A stretch of 64,000 nucleotides of DNA. Origin: Candidatus Hydrogenedentota bacterium (GTDB taxonomy: Bacteria > Hydrogenedentota > Hydrogenedentia > Hydrogenedentales > SLHB01). Shown here piece by piece: positions 1 to 15,164 of this stretch. How positions within the stretch are numbered: position 1 is the first letter of the stretch; the number at the start of each line of letters is the position of its first letter. The stretch is taken from assembly GCA_963745075.1 (NCBI GenBank), contig CAVUWV010000010.1, positions 128,001 through 192,000 on the forward strand, given 5' to 3'. The position numbers and the translations under genes were made by a program. Under the pieces are notes generated by a model. It was not told the DNA's origin. It saw only the letters and a program-made list of their open reading frames with translations, and did no database searches.

Positions 1-1798
1 GGATTGCCTCGTTCTGCAGGAGATTGACCAGGTCCGCAACCGTTGGCGCCGGATAGTAGTGGCCGCCGGTCTCGGTGGCCATTTCAATCAATGCCGATGC
101 CCGCACGTTTTCGCCAAAGCCGATGGGGTAGAGGCGAACGCGTTTGTCCTGAGCCTCTGTGATGACGTTGTCGACCGCGTTAACCGAAGAGGTGTCCCGT
201 CCATCCGAAATGAACACGACCGCGCGAACGTCCGTGTCATTGAAGGGGAATACGCCGAGATCTTCGTTCTCAATGCGTTGGCACGCTTCGATGATCGCAT
301 CGTTCACTTCCGAGGCGCCGTGCTCCCCGACGGGAACCGAAAATGCCTGCAACTCCGCGGCGAGGGTCGCCTTGTTGGTCGAGAAGTTGTGGATCAATCG
401 GTCGGTTTGCTGCCGCTCGTGGTATTCCATGAGCGCCATGCGGTACGAGTCGGGCAAATCGTTAATGAAATCGACCGACGCATTCACCATCTGGTCGATC
501 GCCGTCCCGCTGCCCGGAGGCGCGTTGTACATACTGCCCGTGTAGTCGAGCAGCAGCACGAGGTTGTATTTTAGATTCTCCGCGCTCGTCACGAAGAGAT
601 TGGTTTCATCCACGTCGAGAGGAACCATGTCCTCTTCCACGGTGAAAGCCGTCTGCAGGTCGTTGAGCACGTCGGGGTCCGTCGTGTCGATTGCTTCGCC
701 CACGGCGTTGCGCAGCAGAAATATGAAGCGCAGAATAAAGGGCGGCCGCGACCGGTTCTGGGCGCCCTCGAAGATCAGCGGCGACGCTTCCACATTCACG
801 ACCACGTCAACTGGATCGAGCCCGTCCGCGGTGACCGTAATCGTTCCGCCGTCGGTTTCACCGGTAAGTGCGCCGCGGTCGATCGTCACGGTTATCGGTA
901 CCCGATCGTAATTGAGCGGATTCCCGGTACCCGTACTTGAACCCGAATCCGGTTCGAAATAAATCAAATCCGGGCGGTCCGTCGACAACGTGAAATCGAG
1001 TGCGCTGCCGGCAGCGCCCGTATTGAACACGTCAAAGGTTAGCTGGCTGAGCGTGGTTCCGTAGTCGAGCACTTCCGGTTCCACGCCGATTTCCGCGCTC
1101 GCGCCCGCCGATATGTTCAATGCGACGGTTACGTCGCCCACAGTCGTCTGAACGATAATTAAAAATCCATAGACACCGGGGTCGAGTTGGCCTCGGTCGA
1201 TTTGGATGTCGACCGTACTGTTGGCGCCCGCTTGCGTCGTTCCGCCGCCGGGCGAAATGGTCAGGTAGGCCGGCGCCGTAATCTCCGTACCCGGATCGTC
1301 GGCGCTTTCCAAACGAAGATTCCAGGTGAGCGGCCCGTCCCCGTTGTTCGAAATCGTAAACTGGGTCGCTTCCTGGTTGTTGAGAAGGCTCAACGTCAGC
1401 GGCGTCACGTCCACCGTGGGCGTTCCCGGCACCTGCATGGCAACCGGCACGGTTTTGTTTCCGGCGCTGGACGATACGATGATGTTGCCGTTGTAGCTTC
1501 CAGGGGTGAGCCCCGTGCGGTCCACCGTGAAATAAACGCGGTCCAGTTCCGTCGTGGTGGTGCCGTTGGTGACGTTGGCGGTCAACCAGGGGATGCTTTC
1601 CGAAATGGTCCACGTGATCGCGCCCGAACCGGTATTCGTGATGCCGATGCTCTTTTCGTCGGCCAGCGAGCCAAAGTTGAGCGCGGCGGGTTTCACGTTG
1701 AGCACCACGCTGGTCGTACCACCGGTGGGGCACCCCGTCAACGCCAGACTGCCGAGGCAAAGGACCAAGATGGGCACTGTGGCCAATAGACGTTTCAT
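1..1798 (-). CDS. Lipoprotein with about 3 BACON-like Ig domains and a VWA domain (3' end runs off the window)
   Basis: Absent from the ORF track; translated by hand from ATG 1798 as MKRLLATVPILVLCLGSLALTGCP (lipobox). BACON-type repeats follow (ITNTGSGAITWTISESIPWLTA...VDRTGL). The same frame later gives a MIDAS-like LVLLLDYTGS, VVFISDGRD and MATETGGHYY. Confidence 0.85.
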   Translation of the reverse strand, partial: MKRLLATVPILVLCLGSLALTGCPTGGTTSVVLNVKPAALNFGSLADEKSIGITNTGSGAITWTISESIPWLTANVTNGTTTTELDRVYFTVDRTGLTPGSYNGNIIVSSSAGNKTVPVAMQVPGTPTVDVTPLTLSLLNNQEATQFTISNNGDGPLTWNLRLESADDPGTEITAPAYLTISPGGGTTQAGANSTVDIQIDRGQLDPGVYGFLIIVQTTVGDVTVALNISAGASAEIGVEPEVLDYGTTLSQLTFDVFNTGAAGSALDFTLSTDRPDLIYFEPDSGSSTGTGNPLNYDRVPITVTIDRGALTGETDGGTITVTADGLDPVDVVVNVEASPLIFEGAQNRSRPPFILRFIFLLRNAVGEAIDTTDPDVLNDLQTAFTVEEDMVPLDVDETNLFVTSAENLKYNLVLLLDYTGSMYNAPPGSGTAIDQMVNASVDFINDLPDSYRMALMEYHERQQTDRLIHNFSTNKATLAAELQAFSVPVGEHGASEVNDAIIEACQRIENEDLGVFPFNDTDVRAVVFISDGRDTSSVNAVDNVITEAQDKRVRLYPIGFGENVRASALIEMATETGGHYYPAPTVADLVNLLQNEAI

Positions 1799-1945
1799 CG
1801 CGTACGTCCCTCTAACTGGCGCGGGTACCCGTCGGCATCCCGGGCCATATGTTTTGGAAGCGGCCGGTTCTCCGGCTGCCCCCATTGCCGCAGCATCGAA
1901 CGCGGTGAAAACGAATCCGCCTTCGGGCGGGCCAAGTTCACGCCG

Positions 1946-2533
1946 CTAGGCCTGCTGGTCGCCGCTACTGCAACAAACTACGTTTACACCCTGTCCCTCA
2001 AGGTACGGGATGTCGAAGTCGTTCGCCTGATCGCCCAGCGAGTCGCAGGTAACGTTCACAAAATCGCCCGGCCCAAGGCCTCCATTCACGGAGTTGGTTA
2101 CCAACGGCTGAATATCCGTCACGAGCGTGCCGCAAAGACTCACGGAGTCGAGATTGGGAAGACCTGCGAGAGCAGAGACCTCGAACACGTCCGTGCCGTC
2201 GATATTCAGACTGAGAAGATTTACCAGACTGGAGAGAGGGGTGATGTCAGATACGGGGTTTCCGCTGATATCCAGATACGTCAGATTCGTGCAATACTCC
2301 AGGCCCGACAGGCTCCGGATGTTCAGATTGCGAACGTCCAGGCTGCTCAGCGTCAACACGTCCGCACGCGTCAGGAATCCCAGAGGGTGACTGAGCGCTT
2401 CCCGCACCGCCGCATCCAACACGTCATCATTGAACACCACAATAGTCGTCGCCGCCGGACAGCCCGACATGGTGACGACCAGCAGCACGGTCAACGCCGT
2501 GAATCCAAACCGTTTTATCCAATTCGTTCGCAT
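1946..2533 (-). CDS. Internalin-like leucine-rich-repeat lipoprotein
   Basis: Lipobox MSGCP; LRR units LEYCTNLTYLDISGNPVSDITPL and LSSLVNLLSLNIDGTDV. Confidence 0.85.
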   Translation of the reverse strand: MRTNWIKRFGFTALTVLLVVTMSGCPAATTIVVFNDDVLDAAVREALSHPLGFLTRADVLTLSSLDVRNLNIRSLSGLEYCTNLTYLDISGNPVSDITPLSSLVNLLSLNIDGTDVFEVSALAGLPNLDSVSLCGTLVTDIQPLVTNSVNGGLGPGDFVNVTCDSLGDQANDFDIPYLEGQGVNVVCCSSGDQQA

Positions 2534-3449: not shown

Positions 3450-3791
3450 TCAGCCGATGGCCGCCCCGCTGGTTTCACCGGTACGGATGCGGATGCAGTC
3501 GGCGAGGTCGATCACGAAGATCTTGCCATCTCCGATTTCGCCCGTCTTGGCGCCTTTGATGATTCCATCGATCGTCGGTTTAACGTAGTCGTCGTTGACG
3601 GCGATCTCGAGGCGCACTTTCTTCAAGAGGTTGACTTCCACGTCCACCCCGCGATAGGACTCGTGGTATCCCATCTGCTGGCCGCACCCGAGCGCGTTGG
3701 TGACGGACATCTTGGTCACTTCCCGTTCGTACAGCGCCTGTTTGACGGCATTGAGCCGTTCCGGCTGAATGTATGCAACGATCAGTTTCAT
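3450..3791 (-). CDS. glnK: P-II family nitrogen regulatory protein
   Basis: T-loop [13 protein letters not shown] and [12 protein letters not shown] signature; directly downstream of amt. Confidence 0.95.
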
Positions 3792-3825: not shown

Positions 3826-5241
3826 TTATTGCGTGGTGAAGATCTGGAAGCCGCTGTACGCCTCCATACCGTGCTCGCCGATATCCAGGCCGCGGATCTC
3901 TTCGGCTTCGCTGACCCGAAGTCCGATCGTGTATTTCAGCCCGAGGAACAGCACCACACCTGCGCCGAAGGCCCACACGAAGGCGGACACGACACCGATT
4001 GTCTGCGTGGCGAACTGAGCGAACCCGCCGCCATAGAGCAGCCCGCCGTCCAGGTTGAACAGTCCGCAAGACAAGGTGCCCCACGCACCGCATACACCAT
4101 GGACGCTGACTGCGCCCACCGGGTCGTCAATCTTCAGCACGCGGTCGATGAACAGTACGCTGAATACCACCAGAACGCCGGCGATGGCGCCGATCGCGCA
4201 TGCGCCGACGGCGCTTACGGTGTAACACGGCGCCGTGATCGCAACCAGACCGGCCAGCACGCCGTTAAACGTCATCGACGGTTCGGGCTTCTTGAAGATC
4301 ACCCACGACGCCATCATGGCCGTTATCGCGGCGCACGCTGCCGCCAGATTGGTCGTGATTGCGACGTAACCGATCTCACCGTTCGCCGTCGTCGTGCTGC
4401 CCGGATTGAACCCGAACCAGCCGAGCCACAGGATGAACACGCCCAGCGCCGCCAATCCGAAGTTGTGGCCGGGAATTGCTTTCGGCTTTCCATCCGGACC
4501 GTATTTGCCGATGCGCGGACCCAGAATCAGGGCGCCCGCCAAGGCCAGCCAGCCGCCGACCGAGTGCACGACCGTTGAACCGGCAAAGTCGACGAATGCC
4601 GGCAAATGCATGGCCGCCAACTGGCCACCGTCCGGCGCTTCCAACCACCCTGCCGAGGCTCCGTTAAAATCGGCATACAACCCGTTCCACGCCCAGGAAC
4701 CGAAGATGGGGTAAATGAAGGCGCTGATCAATACGCTATACACAAGGTACGACACGAACTTGGTCCGTTCTGCCATGGCGCCCGAAACGATCGTGGCTGC
4801 CGTCGCACAGAAGACCGTCTGAAACAAGAGGAAGGTCCAGGGCCACTGGGAAATCGCGTCACTCGCTCCCCAATTCACATCGCTCAACATAAACCCCGAC
4901 GTTCCGAACAGTCCTTTCGATGCGCCGAACATGATGCCGAATCCGATGACGAAGAACGCCACCGATCCGAAGGCAAAGTCCATCAGGTTCTTCATCAGGA
5001 TGTTCAGAGAGTTCTTCGCCCGGGTCATTCCCATCTCGACCATGGCGAACCCGGCCTGCATGAACATGACCAAGAACGCGGCGACGCAGGTCCACACCGC
5101 GTTCGCGTTGTACTGGAGTTGTTCCTGCACCGCGGCAACGGTGGGCGCTGCCGCGGGGTCGTCCTGGGCTATCGCCCAGGGCGCGCCAATCACCATCAGC
5201 ACCATGGCGATCGGCAAGATTCGTTTGGTTAAGTTAGCCAT
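3826..5241 (-). CDS. amtB: Ammonium transporter
   Basis: FMQAGFAMVE, DFAGSTVVHSVGG, LWLGWFGFNPGS and DDPVGAVSVHGVCG motifs; signal peptide. Confidence 0.97.
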   Translation of the reverse strand: MANLTKRILPIAMVLMVIGAPWAIAQDDPAAAPTVAAVQEQLQYNANAVWTCVAAFLVMFMQAGFAMVEMGMTRAKNSLNILMKNLMDFAFGSVAFFVIGFGIMFGASKGLFGTSGFMLSDVNWGASDAISQWPWTFLLFQTVFCATAATIVSGAMAERTKFVSYLVYSVLISAFIYPIFGSWAWNGLYADFNGASAGWLEAPDGGQLAAMHLPAFVDFAGSTVVHSVGGWLALAGALILGPRIGKYGPDGKPKAIPGHNFGLAALGVFILWLGWFGFNPGSTTTANGEIGYVAITTNLAAACAAITAMMASWVIFKKPEPSMTFNGVLAGLVAITAPCYTVSAVGACAIGAIAGVLVVFSVLFIDRVLKIDDPVGAVSVHGVCGAWGTLSCGLFNLDGGLLYGGGFAQFATQTIGVVSAFVWAFGAGVVLFLGLKYTIGLRVSEAEEIRGLDIGEHGMEAYSGFQIFTTQ

Positions 5242-5333: not shown

Positions 5334-5350
5334 AGCAAATGCTATGCCAA
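5334..5350 (-). promoter_or_regulatory. Sigma54 (-24/-12) promoter of amt-glnK
   Basis: Minus strand TTGGCATAGCATTTGCT (GG-N10-GC), about 90 nt upstream of the amt ATG. Confidence 0.8.
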
Positions 5351-5420: not shown

Positions 5421-5499
5421 TTTACGAGTCGGTAGGTCGGTTTGGGTATTCCTACCATCCGGTAGGAAGGGCTGGGGCGCGTCCCTACGCGCCGGTAAC
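5421..5499. promoter_or_regulatory. Three phased TAC-N6-GTA sites (candidate upstream activator sequence)
   Basis: TTTAC-GAGTCG-GTAGG (5421), CCTAC-CATCCG-GTAGG (5451, inside the palindrome TTCCTACC-N4-GGTAGGAA), CCTAC-GCGCCG-GTAAC (5484); offsets 30 and 33 bp. Confidence 0.7.
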
Positions 5500-5522: not shown

Positions 5523-6503
5523 CTACCCGGTCGAGCGGTAATTCCGGGGTTCGATTCCGTACTTGCGAACGCGTAACCCCATAAGCCGCTCGGTGATGCC
5601 CAATTGCTGCGCCGCTCTGGAGCGGTTTCCGTTCGACGCGCGCAACGCATCGATAATCAGCGTGCGTTCCACGGATTCGAGCGTGGCGGGCAGGGAATCC
5701 TCCGTTACGGAAACCGCCGGTTCTGTTTGCTGTACCGGTGGCGGAAGGTGTTCCAGCTCGATCGTGTCCGACGTGCAGAGCATTACGGCGTGTTCGATAC
5801 AACGGTCGAGTTCGGTCAGGTTTCCCGGCCAGGTGTACTCCAGCAGAAGGCTGGCCACGCGGGAGGACAACCGCTGAATCGGTTTTTCGGCCGCTTCCGC
5901 GTATCGGCGTAAGAAGTGTTGCGCCAGCAGCAGGATGTCCGTTTTACGTTCGCGGAGTGGCGGTATCCGGATGGTAACGATCGTCAGTTCGTCGCAGAAG
6001 TCTTTAAGAAACCGGCCGTCTTCGATCAGGCGATCCAACTCGCGCCGGCTGGCGGCGATGACCCGGACGTCGGCCGGTTGTGGCGAATTTGCCCCCGGCT
6101 TCATGAACGAGCGCTCTCGAATGCACCGCATAAGCTTGGCCTGCATCGCTAAGCTGAAATCGCCGATTTCTTCGATGAATAAGGTGCCGCCTTCCGCTTC
6201 TTCGATCTTGCCCTGCGGCGGAACCGACCCGTGCGCAGCCGATGCGGCGCCGAAGAGTTCGCCTTCGACAAACGACTCCGTTACTTCCGGCCAACGGACC
6301 GTCACGAACGGATTGTGCGCACGTGCACTTAGATTGTGGATGGCACGCGCGATCGCCTCCGCGCCGGTCCCGCGCTCACTGCGCAGAAGCACCGCGACGT
6401 TGCCGCGCGCCACGTGCGTCGCCAGGCTGTAGACCTGTTCCATGGCAGGAGAGCGCTCGACCCGGTCAAAGCGGTCTATCTCGTCATCCCGGAAAGCGTT
6501 CAT
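5523..6503 (-). CDS. Degenerate sigma54 enhancer-binding-protein homolog (AAA+ fold plus Fis HTH, no sensor domain, catalytic motifs lost)
   Basis: Start moved to ATG 6503 (GGAG SD, sigma54 promoter just upstream); 326 aa. Walker A reads SERGTGAE, the GAFTGA loop reads AASAAHGS, Walker B reads FIEEI and the R-finger region reads FLKDFCDEL. HTH: LGITERLMGLRVRKYGI. Confidence 0.85.
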   Translation of the reverse strand: MNAFRDDEIDRFDRVERSPAMEQVYSLATHVARGNVAVLLRSERGTGAEAIARAIHNLSARAHNPFVTVRWPEVTESFVEGELFGAASAAHGSVPPQGKIEEAEGGTLFIEEIGDFSLAMQAKLMRCIRERSFMKPGANSPQPADVRVIAASRRELDRLIEDGRFLKDFCDELTIVTIRIPPLRERKTDILLLAQHFLRRYAEAAEKPIQRLSSRVASLLLEYTWPGNLTELDRCIEHAVMLCTSDTIELEHLPPPVQQTEPAVSVTEDSLPATLESVERTLIIDALRASNGNRSRAAQQLGITERLMGLRVRKYGIEPRNYRSTG

Positions 6504-6526
6504 ATAGAAACTCCGGGAGGGGGGAG

Positions 6527-6543
6527 AGCAACGGGCGTGCCAA
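6527..6543 (-). promoter_or_regulatory. Sigma54 promoter of the degenerate EBP gene
   Basis: Minus strand TTGGCACGCCCGTTGCT, a full match to TGGCACG-N4-TTGC. Confidence 0.85.
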
Positions 6544-6678: not shown

Positions 6679-6694
6679 CCTACCAAATTGTAGG
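6679..6694. promoter_or_regulatory. CCTAC-N6-GTAGG palindrome (candidate UAS)
   Basis: CCTAC-CAAATT-GTAGG; weaker partial sites at 6646 and 6709. Confidence 0.65.
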
Positions 6695-6825: not shown

Positions 6826-8415
6826 TTACACCAGTCGGGCTGTGCGGTATTGGCGCGGGTTAATATTGTGCTTCCGCACCCGGAGCCCCATGATTCGCTC
6901 GGTAATCCCAGCGACTTCCGCCGCCTTGGCTTTGTTGCCGCGGGAGTTTTTCAGCGCTTCAATCAGCATCTCCCGTTCCACGTTGTCCAATGTGGCTTCG
7001 AGCGTCTCTTTCATGATGGTGCCCGAGGCTTCCGCCGTCTGCAGGGTGGGGGGGAGGTGATGTCCGTGGACCACGTCGTCATTGCTCAGCAACACGGCGC
7101 GTTCGATGCAGTTTTCCAATTCGCGAACGTTGCCGGGCCAATGGTAGCTCGACAGCATGTCGATAGCGGGGGTCGAGATCCGGCGAATGTCTTTTCCGGC
7201 GGACTTGCTGGCTTTCTCGACGAAGTGGTTGGCCAAGTCGAGGATGTCCGCCCGGCGTTCACGGAGCGGCGGGATGTGGATGGGAAACACGTTCAGGCGA
7301 TAGTACAGATCCTGCCGGAACGTTTCGTCTTCCATGAGGGTTTCCAGTTCCCGATTGGTCGCGGCGATGATCCGCACGTCTACCTTGATGGTTTCGGTGC
7401 CGCCGACCCGTTCAAACTCGCGTTCCTGCAGGACCCGCAGCAACCGGATCTGCATCGTCGGTGCGAGATCCCCGATTTCATCCAGGAAGATCGTGCCGCC
7501 ATCAGCCAGTTCGAATCGTCCTTTGCGCTGCTGCAACGCGTTAGTGAAGGCGCCTTTCTCATGGCCGAAGAGTTCACTCTCGATTATGGACTCCGGCAGG
7601 GCCGCGCAATTCACTTTCACGAAGGGCTTGGAGGCCCGCAGGCTGTTGTAGTGGATCGCGCTGGCCACCAGCTCTTTGCCCACGCCGCTTTCGCCGCGGA
7701 TCAGCACGGTCGCGTCGCTCTTGGCCACTTGTCCGATCAGGTCGAAGACCTTCTGCATGGCGTTCGAACGGCCGATGATGTTCGCCGGACGGAATCGATC
7801 TTTCAACTCGTTTTGCAGCCGGAGATTCTCTTCGCGCAGCCGCTGCTGCTCTTCCATGGCGGACTGGCGCAGGCGCACCGCTTGCGCGATCATCGACGCG
7901 ATAATCGAAAGGAGGCGAATGTCTTCGTCCAACGAAACCGGACCCGAAAACAGGCGGTCGACGCTCAGCGCCCCGATGGTCTCATTGCCCAACTTGATGG
8001 GCACACAGATGAAGGAGACTTCGTCCTTCTTGACCTTTTGCCGGGCGCCCGTTTTGTCTAGAAAAGTCGGCTCGTCGGAGATGCGCGGAATCGCCACGGC
8101 GCGTCCCGTTTCCACCACCATCCCGGTGACGCCTTCGCCCCTCCGGTAGTGGCCGCGTTCCCGCTGGCTTTCCGACAGCCCGTGCGCCGCCTCGATGAAC
8201 AGTTCTCCGGTGTCGCGGTTCAACAGCGTGAGGGTACCGCGCACCATTCCCGTGTTGTTGGCGATGGCTTTTAAGAGGGTGCCGACCTCGTCGCGCAAGT
8301 CCAGGCTGCGGTCCAGGGTCTGGCTGATCTCGAAGAGCAGGGACAACTCGCCGAGATCCTTCTTGATATCCGGACCCGTCCGTCGGCGGTGAACCTTCGT
8401 TTTTGTCTGTGACAT
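6826..8415 (-). CDS. NifA/AnfA/VnfA-like sigma54-dependent activator (GAF-AAA+-HTH)
   Basis: N-terminal GAF ([12 protein letters not shown]...SFICVPIK...IGALSVD), [39 protein letters not shown] and a C-terminal HTH. Confidence 0.93.
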
Positions 8416-8447: not shown

Positions 8448-8493
8448 CTACGGAAACGTACCATATGGTAGGATTCTGATTCGGCAATGTCAA
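8448..8493 (-). promoter_or_regulatory. Sigma70-type promoter of the NifA-like gene, overlapped by two TAC-N6-GTA sites
   Basis: TTGACA (8493-8488)-N17-TACCAT (8470-8465); CTAC-GGAAAC-GTAC (8448-8461) and GTAC-CATATG-GTAGG (8458-8472). Confidence 0.6.
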
Positions 8494-8697: not shown

Positions 8698-11151
8698 ATG
8701 ACTTTTCACTCAGGTGTTTCGCGTTCGACCTTACTGTGCGGGCTGCTTGCGGTTAGTTTGTTGTCCTCCCCAATCGCCGATGCCGAAGACCCCATCGATC
8801 TGACGCAATGCGCTGTCCTTTCCGAGACCGCAACGCCGGTTGTTACAAAAGCGAGTGAGATGTTGATCGAAGAGATCGGCGAACGCACCGGGTTGCATCT
8901 GCCCGCCGTCACGACGATCGATCGGGATGCCCCCGCGATCGTCCTCAGCACGGAGGATGGATTGTCCGTACCCGTGCCGGTCTATCCCGAAGGGATAACC
9001 GTGCCGGAGCGCGCGGATGGGTACGCGCTGTGGCTTGACAACGACGGACCCGCTCCCCGCGTGTACGTCGTCGGTCATGACGCGCGCGGCGTGTTATTCG
9101 GCGTGGGACGTCTTCTGCGGACACTGCAGATGCGGGATGGGGAGATCGCGTTGGATCCCACGTTTCGGATTGCCACCGCGCCTCACGATCGGATTCGGGG
9201 TCATCAACTGGGCTATCGCGCTGCCAACAACACGATCGACGCCTGGAACGTTGCCCGGTTCGAGCAGTACATCCGCGACCTCATCGTTTTCGGCGCCAAC
9301 TGTATCGAATTGATTCCCGACTTCGACCGGGGCCCCAAGGACAGCCCGCACATGCCCTTGACGACCTCCGAGATGAACCGGCAATTGTGCGGCATCATCT
9401 CGTTATACGGACTGGATGTCTGGAGCTGGCATGCGCTGCACGGCGATGTGTCCGACGAGTCTGTAGCAAAAGCGGAATTGGAGCGCAGCCGACGCGACTT
9501 CGCGGATCTTCCGGAACTCGACGCGGTATTCGTGCCGAGCGGCGATCCCGGTGAGACTCCGGCCGACAAGTTGTTACCGTTCCTCGCGCGATTCGCGGGG
9601 GTCCTTCACGAAGTGCACCCGGACGCCGAACTCTGGGTGTCGACGCAAGGGTTTACCGACGAGGAGAACGAGTATTTCTTTCACTACCTTGCGACGGAAC
9701 AACCAGACTGGCTGACCGGCGTGGTTTTCGGCCCCTGGGCCAAGTTGACTCTGCGGGAACTGCGCCAGCGCATCCCGCAGCAATACCCGGTGCGTTCCTA
9801 TCCCGACATCACCCATACTGTGCGCTGTCAGTATCCCGTCCCCCACTGGGATCGCGCGTTTGCCCATACCTTGGGCCGTGAACCGGCCAATCCCCGGCCC
9901 GTGGCGGAGGCGCACATCCATGAACTGGAAACGGATCTGTGCGAAGGATTCATCACCTATTCGGATGGCGTGAACGACGACGTGAACAAGATGATCTGGT
10001 CCGCCTGCGGCTGGGATCCACAGGTGGACGTGCAGGAAGTATTGGAAGACTACAGCCGCTACTTTTTCGGACCGGACTTCGCGGCTGACGGAGCGGCGGG
10101 GTTGCTCGCCGAGGAGAACAACTGGAAGGGTCCATTGGGGGCCAACAAGGGAGTCGATCGGACGCTGGAGCACTGGCAGGCCATGGAGCACCGCGCCGAC
10201 GCGAAATTGCTCGGCAACTGGCGCTTTCAGCAGGGATTGCTGCGCGCCTACTACGACGCGTACGTCAAGGCCCGTCTCGTGCAAGCGATTGATGCGGAGT
10301 CCCGTGCTTACGCCGAACTGGCCAAAGCGAACGACATCGGCGCCCCCGCGGCACTGGACGCCGCAGATACCGCCCTCGGTATGTACGACGATTTTCCTGC
10401 TGCGCCCGATCTTCGCATGCGTATCGACGAGTTGGGCAAACAACTCTACGAGAGCATCGGCATGCAACTCAGTGTTGAAACGTACGGAGCCAGCGGCAAA
10501 GAGCGGGGCGCCGTGCTGGACGGACTGGATTCGCCGCTTAACGACCGGGCTTGGCTTGAATCGCAGTTTGCCGCACTACGTGCCGAGTCGAAGGCCGAAA
10601 CGCAATTGGCGGGTATCGAACGCCTCGTGAATTGGGAGAAGCCCACGTCCGACGCCTTCTACGATGATTTGGGCAACGGAGAAAAAGAACCACACCTCGT
10701 CTATCAGAAAACGTGGGCGGAAGATCCGGGATTTGTCGAATCGCCTCAGGACGAATTCTCCATGAGCCCGCTCGAACCCCAGGATCCCCTTCAACTCGAA
10801 CCCAAAGCCGAACCCCGGGCATCGAACGTCTCTCCTCCGCGCTTGTCCTGGCTCGATCAGGGGGAAACTTTGTATCGCACCGATTTGCTCATGCGCTACG
10901 AACATCTCGATCCGAAGAAGACTTATACACTGCGCGCGGTCTATGCCGGCCGGTTTCACGCTACCATGAAACTCATGGCCGATGATACGTATGAGGTCCA
11001 TGGGCCCATACCGTACAGCGAGCCCCTCGAAGTGCATGAGTTCCCCATCCCGGCCGACGCGACGAAGGACGGTGTTTTGAACCTGCGCTGGATCGCAGTT
11101 GAAGGAAGGGGACCCCAAGTCGCCGAGGTCTGGCTCGTTCCGAATTCGTAA
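8698..11151 (+). CDS. Secreted glycoside-hydrolase-like protein of unknown specificity (GH67/GH20 N-terminal-like domain)
   Basis: Long ORF with a probable start at ATG 8698 and a signal peptide; DGYAL...VVGHDARGVLFGVGRLLR resembles the N-terminal domain of GH20/GH67/GH115. Confidence 0.6.
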   Translation: MTFHSGVSRSTLLCGLLAVSLLSSPIADAEDPIDLTQCAVLSETATPVVTKASEMLIEEIGERTGLHLPAVTTIDRDAPAIVLSTEDGLSVPVPVYPEGITVPERADGYALWLDNDGPAPRVYVVGHDARGVLFGVGRLLRTLQMRDGEIALDPTFRIATAPHDRIRGHQLGYRAANNTIDAWNVARFEQYIRDLIVFGANCIELIPDFDRGPKDSPHMPLTTSEMNRQLCGIISLYGLDVWSWHALHGDVSDESVAKAELERSRRDFADLPELDAVFVPSGDPGETPADKLLPFLARFAGVLHEVHPDAELWVSTQGFTDEENEYFFHYLATEQPDWLTGVVFGPWAKLTLRELRQRIPQQYPVRSYPDITHTVRCQYPVPHWDRAFAHTLGREPANPRPVAEAHIHELETDLCEGFITYSDGVNDDVNKMIWSACGWDPQVDVQEVLEDYSRYFFGPDFAADGAAGLLAEENNWKGPLGANKGVDRTLEHWQAMEHRADAKLLGNWRFQQGLLRAYYDAYVKARLVQAIDAESRAYAELAKANDIGAPAALDAADTALGMYDDFPAAPDLRMRIDELGKQLYESIGMQLSVETYGASGKERGAVLDGLDSPLNDRAWLESQFAALRAESKAETQLAGIERLVNWEKPTSDAFYDDLGNGEKEPHLVYQKTWAEDPGFVESPQDEFSMSPLEPQDPLQLEPKAEPRASNVSPPRLSWLDQGETLYRTDLLMRYEHLDPKKTYTLRAVYAGRFHATMKLMADDTYEVHGPIPYSEPLEVHEFPIPADATKDGVLNLRWIAVEGRGPQVAEVWLVPNS

Positions 11152-13989: not shown

Positions 13990-14005
13990 TGGCACGTGGC
14001 TTGCT
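13990..14005 (+). promoter_or_regulatory. Sigma54 promoter heading the EBP/EPS cluster
   Basis: TGGCACGTGGCTTGCT, a full consensus match, 100 nt before ATG 14106. Confidence 0.8.
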
Positions 14006-14105: not shown

Positions 14106-15164
14106 ATGAACCAGATGCAGACGAGCGATAACATCATCCGTGCGCCCCTGAACGAAGGTCTATTGGGGGTAAGCAAAGCCATCGCCGAAGTCCGTGAAAT
14201 GGTAGTGCGGTTGGCGCAATCGGATATTACCGTGCTGATAAGCGGCGAGAGCGGTACCGGAAAGGACATCGCGGCCCGCATGCTTCACAAGAACTCCGCC
14301 CGGTACGGAAAACCGTTCATCAAGGTGAACTGTCCCGCGATTCCGGAGAGCATCCTGGAGAGCGAACTATTCGGATACGAACGCGGCGCGTTCACGGGCG
14401 CACGGAGCGCCAAGCCCGGCCGGTTTGAATTGGCGAACCACGGCACGATATTTCTTGACGAGATTGCAGAGACTTCGTACACTGTCCAAGGCAAGCTGTT
14501 GCAGGTACTTGACGGCGAGCCGCCAATGCGCATCGGTGGGGTGAGCCCGATCCCGGTCGATGTGCGCATCGCGGCTGCGACCAACGTCCCGCTGGAGGAC
14601 ACCGTGCGCCGCGGGGCGATGCGGGAAGATTTGTTCTTTCGGCTGAGCGACGTGATCGTTCGGATGCCGTCGTTGCGCGAGCGCCGGGAGGACATCCCAT
14701 TGCTCGCCGAGCACTTCAATTTTAATTACTCCGATCGGTTGGGTAAGCCGTACGAGCCTATCGCGCAAGACTTTCAGGAACGGATCGCGAGTCTCGACTG
14801 GCCGGGAAACGTGCGGGAACTGGGGGCGTGCGTCAAGAAGTTCGTCGCCACCGGCGACCCGGAGACGCTGTTTGGCGATAGCGGTCAATCACCTGAACCC
14901 GTTGCCGTAGCGCTGCGAGACGGCGGTCAAGTCTCGCTGCCCGCGGCCCCGCAACAGGCGGACACCAGCCCGCCTGGGAAAAAGTTCGTATCGTTGAAGG
15001 CGGCAACCCAGAAAGCAATCGAAGAGACGGAGCGGGCACTTATCGAGGAAGCGTTGCGTTATACCTTGTGGAATCGTCGAAAGGCGGCCAAACTGCTGGA
15101 AATCAGCTATAGTTCGTTGTTGCGCCGCATCGACGCCTACCATATTGGGAAGGACAATGGGTAG
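14106..15164 (+). CDS. Sigma54-dependent activator lacking an N-terminal sensor domain
   Basis: [35 protein letters not shown] and an HTH (WNRRKAAKLLEISY); start set downstream of the sigma54 promoter. Confidence 0.88.
   Translation: MNQMQTSDNIIRAPLNEGLLGVSKAIAEVREMVVRLAQSDITVLISGESGTGKDIAARMLHKNSARYGKPFIKVNCPAIPESILESELFGYERGAFTGARSAKPGRFELANHGTIFLDEIAETSYTVQGKLLQVLDGEPPMRIGGVSPIPVDVRIAAATNVPLEDTVRRGAMREDLFFRLSDVIVRMPSLRERREDIPLLAEHFNFNYSDRLGKPYEPIAQDFQERIASLDWPGNVRELGACVKKFVATGDPETLFGDSGQSPEPVAVALRDGGQVSLPAAPQQADTSPPGKKFVSLKAATQKAIEETERALIEEALRYTLWNRRKAAKLLEISYSSLLRRIDAYHIGKDNG

Follow-up and report, generated by a model that had tools for sequence, protein, structure and literature searches.

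The locus studied here raises the question of why a bacterium would keep an enhancer-binding protein (bEBP) that appears to be catalytically dead, next to an intact activator with almost the same DNA recognition helix. The window, meaning the whole stretch of DNA that was analyzed, covers 64,000 nucleotides of a Candidatus Hydrogenedentota contig (CAVUWV010000010.1). The gene in question, hereafter the twin, lies between a NifA-like activator and amtB-glnK, with amtB and the PII gene downstream on the same strand. The relevant features are listed below.

3450..3791, minus strand: PII protein, glnK-like, a predicted target (PII models match below their cut-offs)
3826..5241, minus strand: amtB ammonium transporter, a predicted target (TIGR00836 above cut-off)
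5335..5349, minus strand: sigma54 -24/-12 box of amtB-glnK (pattern match)
5421..5499, no strand: enhancer-like cluster for amtB-glnK, with an exact site at 5451-5466 and weaker ones at 5421-5436 and 5484-5499 (pattern match)
5523..6503, minus strand: the twin, a headless pseudo-ATPase bEBP paralog of 326 aa with AAA+ core, lid, and Fis-type HTH (ORF, alignment, Pfam, AlphaFold model)
6511..6514, minus strand: ribosome-binding site GGAG of the twin (sequence, ortholog alignment)
6528..6542, minus strand: sigma54 -24/-12 box of the twin (pattern match, conserved in orthologs)
6679..6694, no strand: enhancer-like site CCTAC-N6-GTAGG, 152 bp above the -24 box of the twin (exact pattern match)
6826..8415, minus strand: intact NifA-like GAF-AAA+-HTH activator of 529 aa (TIGR01817, 546.9 bits versus a cut-off of 528.85; GAF domain)
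8457..8472, no strand: family site with one mismatch, holding the predicted -10 TACCAT (8470-8465) of the activator gene (pattern match)
8488..8493, minus strand: predicted sigma70 -35 hexamer TTGACA of the activator gene (promoter prediction)

The twin ORF (6503-5523, minus strand) is free of stops and aligns to residues 206-525 of its neighbor (8415-6826) with 45% identity across 320 aa. Pfam assigns PF00158, PF25601, and PF02954, which represent the sigma54 AAA+ domain, the lid, and the Fis-type HTH. No GAF domain was found by Pfam in the twin, in contrast to the neighboring activator. The AlphaFold model retains the bEBP fold (mean pLDDT of 84.9), with ZraR (1ojl) as the top structural match. 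In a protein search, the close relatives are Candidatus Hydrogenedentota proteins.

A first-pass annotation had described this ORF as intact yet altered in its key AAA+ motifs, and alignment with the neighbor confirms both points. GESGVGKE is changed to SERGTGAE, GAFTNA is missing, FLDE is changed to [13 protein letters not shown] to FLKDFCDEL, and GNVREL is changed to GNLTEL. Consequently, the twin is left without the Walker A Lys, the Walker B Asp, sensors I (AATN to AASR) and II, the arginine fingers, and the GAFTGA loop. The switch Asn is lost as well (VNCAA to VRWPE), which, like the change in sensor I, adds to the list of the first-pass annotation. Among eight catalytic or contact residues scored, the Walker B Glu is the sole survivor. 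At these positions, we take the labels switch Asn, sensor I, and arginine finger to apply. For Walker A, Walker B, sensor II, and GAFTGA, the functional roles follow the available excerpt of PMC3105312. The recognition helix has been spared, with 12 of 13 residues equal to those of the activator. By its motifs, the twin is thus a protein with degenerate GAFTGA and Walker motifs and an intact HTH, as in the atypical bEBPs. The likeness of the two HTHs had also been pointed out in the first-pass annotation, which did not mention the missing GAF domain. However, the helix is near-invariant throughout the whole activator family, so the match with the neighbor is a family-level feature and no sign of recent duplication.

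A profile search recovered a dead copy in 12 of 135 Hydrogenedentota genomes, including all six of the window's genus and six across five other genera. The HTH helix family itself occurs in 119 of the 135 genomes, and an HTH-only search of this set yielded no additional true second copies. A thirteenth candidate with two HTH hits (G104) was rejected as a contig-end overlap. Together, the genome and protein searches gave a set of 25 headless proteins, metagenome-derived members included; with respect to fused forms, this result speaks for lengths of up to 585 aa. The window protein has no N-terminal sensor domain, and all 25 members measure 308 to 334 aa. A degenerate DNA pattern of the family signature, run against one genome per prokaryote species, produced 17 hits: 11 dead-family genes (9 with Hydrogenedentota or Hydrogenedentales in their titles and 2 with uncultured Nitrospiraceae), 5 other bEBPs, and 1 unrelated sequence. 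In a metagenome scan, none of 80 activator loci carried a tandem twin, all of them encoding intact activators.

Within the headless family, the GAFT loop (0/25) and the sensor I Asn (0/25) are never present, while the sensor II Arg (1/25) and the switch Asn (1/25) each persist once. The two arginine-finger positions are kept in one and three members, never both together, and the Walker B Asp is kept in five. Two residues resist this pattern, namely the Walker B Glu (22/25) and the Walker A Lys (13/25), so that the reported loss of the latter holds for the window protein but not for about half of its family. All 25 members carry the recognition-helix core TER[LM]MGLRV. By comparison, 51 of 51 activators have the Walker A Lys, the GAFT Phe and Thr, the Walker B DE, both Arg positions, and the sensor II Arg. 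Random stop codons, which the first-pass annotation would have held against its reading as it would an intact GAFTGA, are likewise absent from all 12 genomic copies. Nine further NifA-like proteins without GAFT (P0193, P0216, P0217, P0225, P0249, P0254, P0256, P0257, and P0285) are full-length (470 to 518 aa), have related helices, and fall outside the headless clade; P0217 comes from Myxococcales. Dead NifA-like paralogs may have several independent origins.

Selection on the family was assessed by Nei-Gojobori dN/dS on seven pairs of dead genes, four of which have a dS of >1. In six of the seven pairs, the ratio is 0.07 to 0.11 for the AAA+ core, 0.03 to 0.06 for the HTH, and 0 to 0.16 for the lid. 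Overall ratios equal 0.079 and 0.076 for the two best unsaturated pairs, compared to 0.01 to 0.04 for the activator. The seventh and close pair, G003-G004, reaches 0.225 overall, calculated from 13.5 nonsynonymous and 19.5 synonymous changes. The ortholog collection and per-domain analysis proposed earlier thus point to purifying selection in every domain. Given this pattern by domain, the catalytically dead core is itself preserved, albeit more loosely than that of the activator, as read from the substitution ratios.

These data bear on the simplest explanation, that the twin is a decaying duplicate or pseudogene. Its patchy distribution, its long branches, and an AAA+ core dN/dS several-fold above that of the activator would all suit decay. 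However, every genomic copy is free of stops, the ratios lie far below 1, the promoter is conserved (see below), and the origin is old, making this explanation extremely improbable. The first-pass annotation had preferred an anti-activator over a pseudogene. Its dismissal of a pseudogene stands, given that 25 relatives are intact, that selection is purifying, and that the promoter is conserved. A negative role fits everything tested, whereas the negative sign and the choice between competition and hexamer poisoning are our interpretation.

With respect to its origin, the 21 family members of the set at that stage form one clade (SH-aLRT of 100) in a quick tree with long branches. A position as sister of the Hydrogenedentota activators is neither supported nor rejected (p-AU of 0.47). 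At all six columns that divide Hydrogenedentota from outside activators, the dead family mostly shows the outside state. This disfavors a recent duplication from the neighbor and indicates, at the level of these alignment columns, that the twin is an old paralog or import and no fresh copy.

The preserved core also invites the explanation that the twin is a ligand-gated regulator, in which a remodeled nucleotide pocket senses a metabolite or PII and provides a conditional second input on the same sites. The AAA+ body of approximately 250 residues contains 13 family-specific conserved residues, and new conserved residues (R44, S70, W71, E73, T75, F78, and E111) are located near the old active site. 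Such a selected body would be unneeded in a plain competitor and favors mixed assembly or ligand sensing. The retained Walker B Glu agrees with the latter, as does VpsR, described in the available excerpt of PMC6158489 as an ATPase-degenerate bEBP under c-di-GMP control. However, the pocket residues vary widely, the Walker A Lys being one example, and we regard ligand gating as unlikely.

The context of the gene is conserved to a similar extent. In 9 of the 12 genomes, the twin comes immediately after the activator; an assembly break intervenes in two, and the genes are apart in one. Of the 12 twin-bearing genomes, 11 yielded an intact activator, and 7 have amtB-glnK after the twin. The genome under study encodes rpoN, but no nifH above cut-off (at 89.7% completeness). 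The nifH gene is also absent from all 12 twin-bearing genomes and occurs in 4 of the 135 phylum genomes, on which basis a nitrogen-fixation link was rejected. The activator resembles NifA in its GAF-AAA+-HTH architecture and its TIGR01817 score above the cut-off, but differs in a helix unlike that of solved NifA (9qq6) and in its predicted targets, amtB-glnK and glnB-glnA. Outside the twin-bearing loci, the intact activator family (loci L083-L162) is widespread, often beside amtB-glnK and with the CCTAC-N6-GTAGG site.

The expression signals proposed for the twin were found in place. GGAG lies 7 nt upstream of the ATG, and GGAG or GGAA occurs close to the start in most aligned orthologs. The sigma54 box is perfect (TGGCACG-N4-TTGC, 6542-6528) and is one of two exact matches in the window. 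A box is located 27 to 45 nt before the start of the twin in 11 of the 12 genomes, the 12th having a variant box. Similarly, 11 of the 12 genomes have a CCTAC-N6-GTAGG-like site 119 to 153 bp above the box, and the remaining one (G021) has only a weak site at -215. In the window, this site occurs exactly at 5451 and 6679 and with one mismatch at 8457. At two mismatches, the site and box patterns show no excess over chance within the window alone, and their significance stems from their conservation in relatives. Across the 80 twin-less activator loci (584,844 bases), 25 exact sites were counted, compared to 0 to 1 in ten Markov controls. As a sequence motif, CCTAC-N6-GTAGG therefore belongs to the whole activator family.

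Throughout the genome, 5 of 342 sigma54-like boxes have the family site upstream. They precede the twin, amtB-glnK, glnB-glnA, a small ORF on contig C4, and one doubtful target. The glnB-glnA operon (L163, G000 C34 27185-29345) has a sigma54 box with a family site 126 bp upstream. The C4 box (L164, G000 C4 ~20970, minus strand), with an exact CCTAC-N6-GTAGG 117 bp upstream, precedes only an ORF of ~70 codons or a noncoding RNA, a candidate nitrogen-regulated small gene. No Rfam family was found at two other candidate targets, L164 included. At the activator gene itself, the family site covers the predicted sigma70 -10, which hints at autorepression, a negative route that the first-pass annotation does not consider; among 100 activator upstream regions, in which near-duplicates are included and one row is mis-sliced, 32 have a -35 located 21 to 22 nt before the site.

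Combining these observations, we consider it fairly probable that the twin is a brake induced by the activator, occupying the activator's sites, repressing the activator gene, and possibly poisoning activator rings. Under nitrogen limitation, the activator would bind CCTAC-N6-GTAGG and turn on amtB-glnK, glnB-glnA, and the twin from their sigma54 promoters. The twin, with no sensor to turn it off, would bind the same sites and displace the activator from its enhancers. It would also occupy the -10 in the predicted sigma70 promoter of the activator gene itself, so that less activator is made. Less surely, the conserved AAA+ body may let the twin join activator assemblies on DNA and spoil them. 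Overall, the nitrogen-starvation response would be clamped by a negative-feedback loop. The negative sign is suggested by two precedents. Both HrpR and HrpS require GAFTGA and Walker A for activity (excerpt of PMC3105312), and RedR in an inactive form blocks its active counterpart (excerpt of PMC10084136). A more specific version, a dedicated decoy subunit in which the pseudo-ATPase is commanded by the activator, delivered to the enhancer by its helix, and enters and kills the activator ring, is put forward tentatively and is rather doubtful.

Several observations speak against a brake. Only 12 of the 135 phylum genomes carry the twin, compared to 119 with the HTH family, which means that the majority of relatives do without it. 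Nucleotide binding may persist in some members, judging from the Walker A Lys and Walker B Glu counts, and the ratio of the G003-G004 pair is elevated, from few changes. In addition, by analogy, the paralogous bEBP pairs described in the excerpts of PMC9542535 and PMC10084136 are co-activators, among them VnfA1, which activates the vnfA3 operon. These pairs suggest a positive helper instead, whereby the twin binds jointly at tandem sites or nucleates activator rings and so raises transcription in a positive feedback, in the manner of FleQ-FleT or HrpR-HrpS. Tandem sites do occur ~33 bp apart at amtB promoters. However, the GAFT loop is lost in all members, HrpR-HrpS activation dies when GAFTGA or Walker A is lost in either subunit, and inactive RedR inhibits, according to the excerpts cited above. 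This makes a positive helper quite unlikely.

As a further explanation, the twin could be an atypical sigma70-type regulator with targets of its own, independent of the activator, like Caulobacter NtrC, NtrX, and TyrR. NtrX, TyrR, and HupR carry sensor domains. Among bEBPs without GAFTGA or ATPase, the excerpts of PMC6158489 and PMC10274813 describe two, VpsR and Caulobacter NtrC, both with a receiver domain and both active at sigma70 promoters. The overlap of the family site with a predicted sigma70 -10 would be in line with such a role. However, a site on a -10 predicts repression, those proteins own a sensor domain and replace a sigma54 activator, and an intact activator with the same helix accompanies the twin in nearly every genome. 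An independent sigma70-type regulon is therefore very unlikely.

Returning to the brake, its nearest counterparts can be sought in three groups. The atypical bEBPs (VpsR, NtrX, TyrR, HupR, and Caulobacter NtrC) share the bEBP fold, degenerate GAFTGA or Walker motifs, and a kept HTH, as far as the excerpts of their descriptions extend. NtrX represses (excerpts of PMC6158489 and PMC10274813), similar to the role proposed here. However, VpsR and Caulobacter NtrC have their own sigma70 regulon and a receiver domain, whereas the twin is sensor-less, occurs together with an intact activator that has the same helix, and has a sigma54 box and a family site in front of it. Desulfovibrio DVU2960, a bEBP of doubtful activity, has a single GAFPGA change (excerpt of PMC4641369).

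The second group comprises the paralogous pairs HrpR-HrpS, FleQ-FleT, RedR1-RedR2, and VnfA1-VnfA3, which share promoters and, in some cases, are tandem and sensor-less. The excerpts available describe all of them as co-activators and mention no dedicated dead subunit among them. GAFTGA is required in HrpR and in HrpS alike, while the twin is not catalytically or sigma54 competent by its motifs; FleT is without HTH (excerpt of PMC10084136), while the twin keeps it. The third group consists of the anti-activators NifL, PspA, HrpV (excerpt of PMC3105312), and FleN. Like the proposed brake, they exert negative control on a sigma54 activator in trans, but they have unrelated folds and bind to the activator, whereas the twin is an activator paralog with its own DNA-binding domain.

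In the full-text literature searched (main texts, with few subscription journals), no feedback inhibitor in the form of a headless dead paralog was found, nor a paper on the CCTAC-N6-GTAGG activator regulon. The available portion of the main text of the Hydrogenedentota genome paper (PMC10866078) contains no occurrence of NifA or glnK. The twin is a real, conserved, and probably undescribed variant. The negative control of sigma54 activators found described proceeds via sensor domains or unrelated anti-activators. If the brake is correct, a sensor-less dead twin as negative feedback would add a further control mode and a clean bacterial pseudoenzyme case; if the decoy version is correct, it would be a natural pseudoenzyme feedback inhibitor of bEBPs. 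The twin would also give a naturally occurring means of determining how many subunits of a bEBP ring have to be active. As a side result, the analysis supplies the CCTAC-N6-GTAGG site of a widespread nitrogen regulator of the NifA-like type, along with its core targets and its predicted autorepression; its hosts are bacteria mostly not fixing nitrogen.

Other features were noted nearby. A second sensor-less bEBP (14106-15164, plus strand) has intact Walker A, GAFTGA, and Walker B motifs and a perfect sigma54 box (13990-14004), and heads a polysaccharide-export-like cluster; it is possibly an autoactivating PspF-like regulator. A simple hexamer-type repeat (~11031-11090) lies near a large ORF ending in the 11151 region and reads DYDYDY or ITITIT in alternative frames, with similar tracts elsewhere in the genome. 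Finally, two genes, one for a lipoprotein-like protein with leucine-rich repeats and one for a large surface protein, come after glnK here but directly after the twin in G123 (window 1-2533 and L072 4283-7492), which suggests that amtB-glnK has left the locus in that genome.
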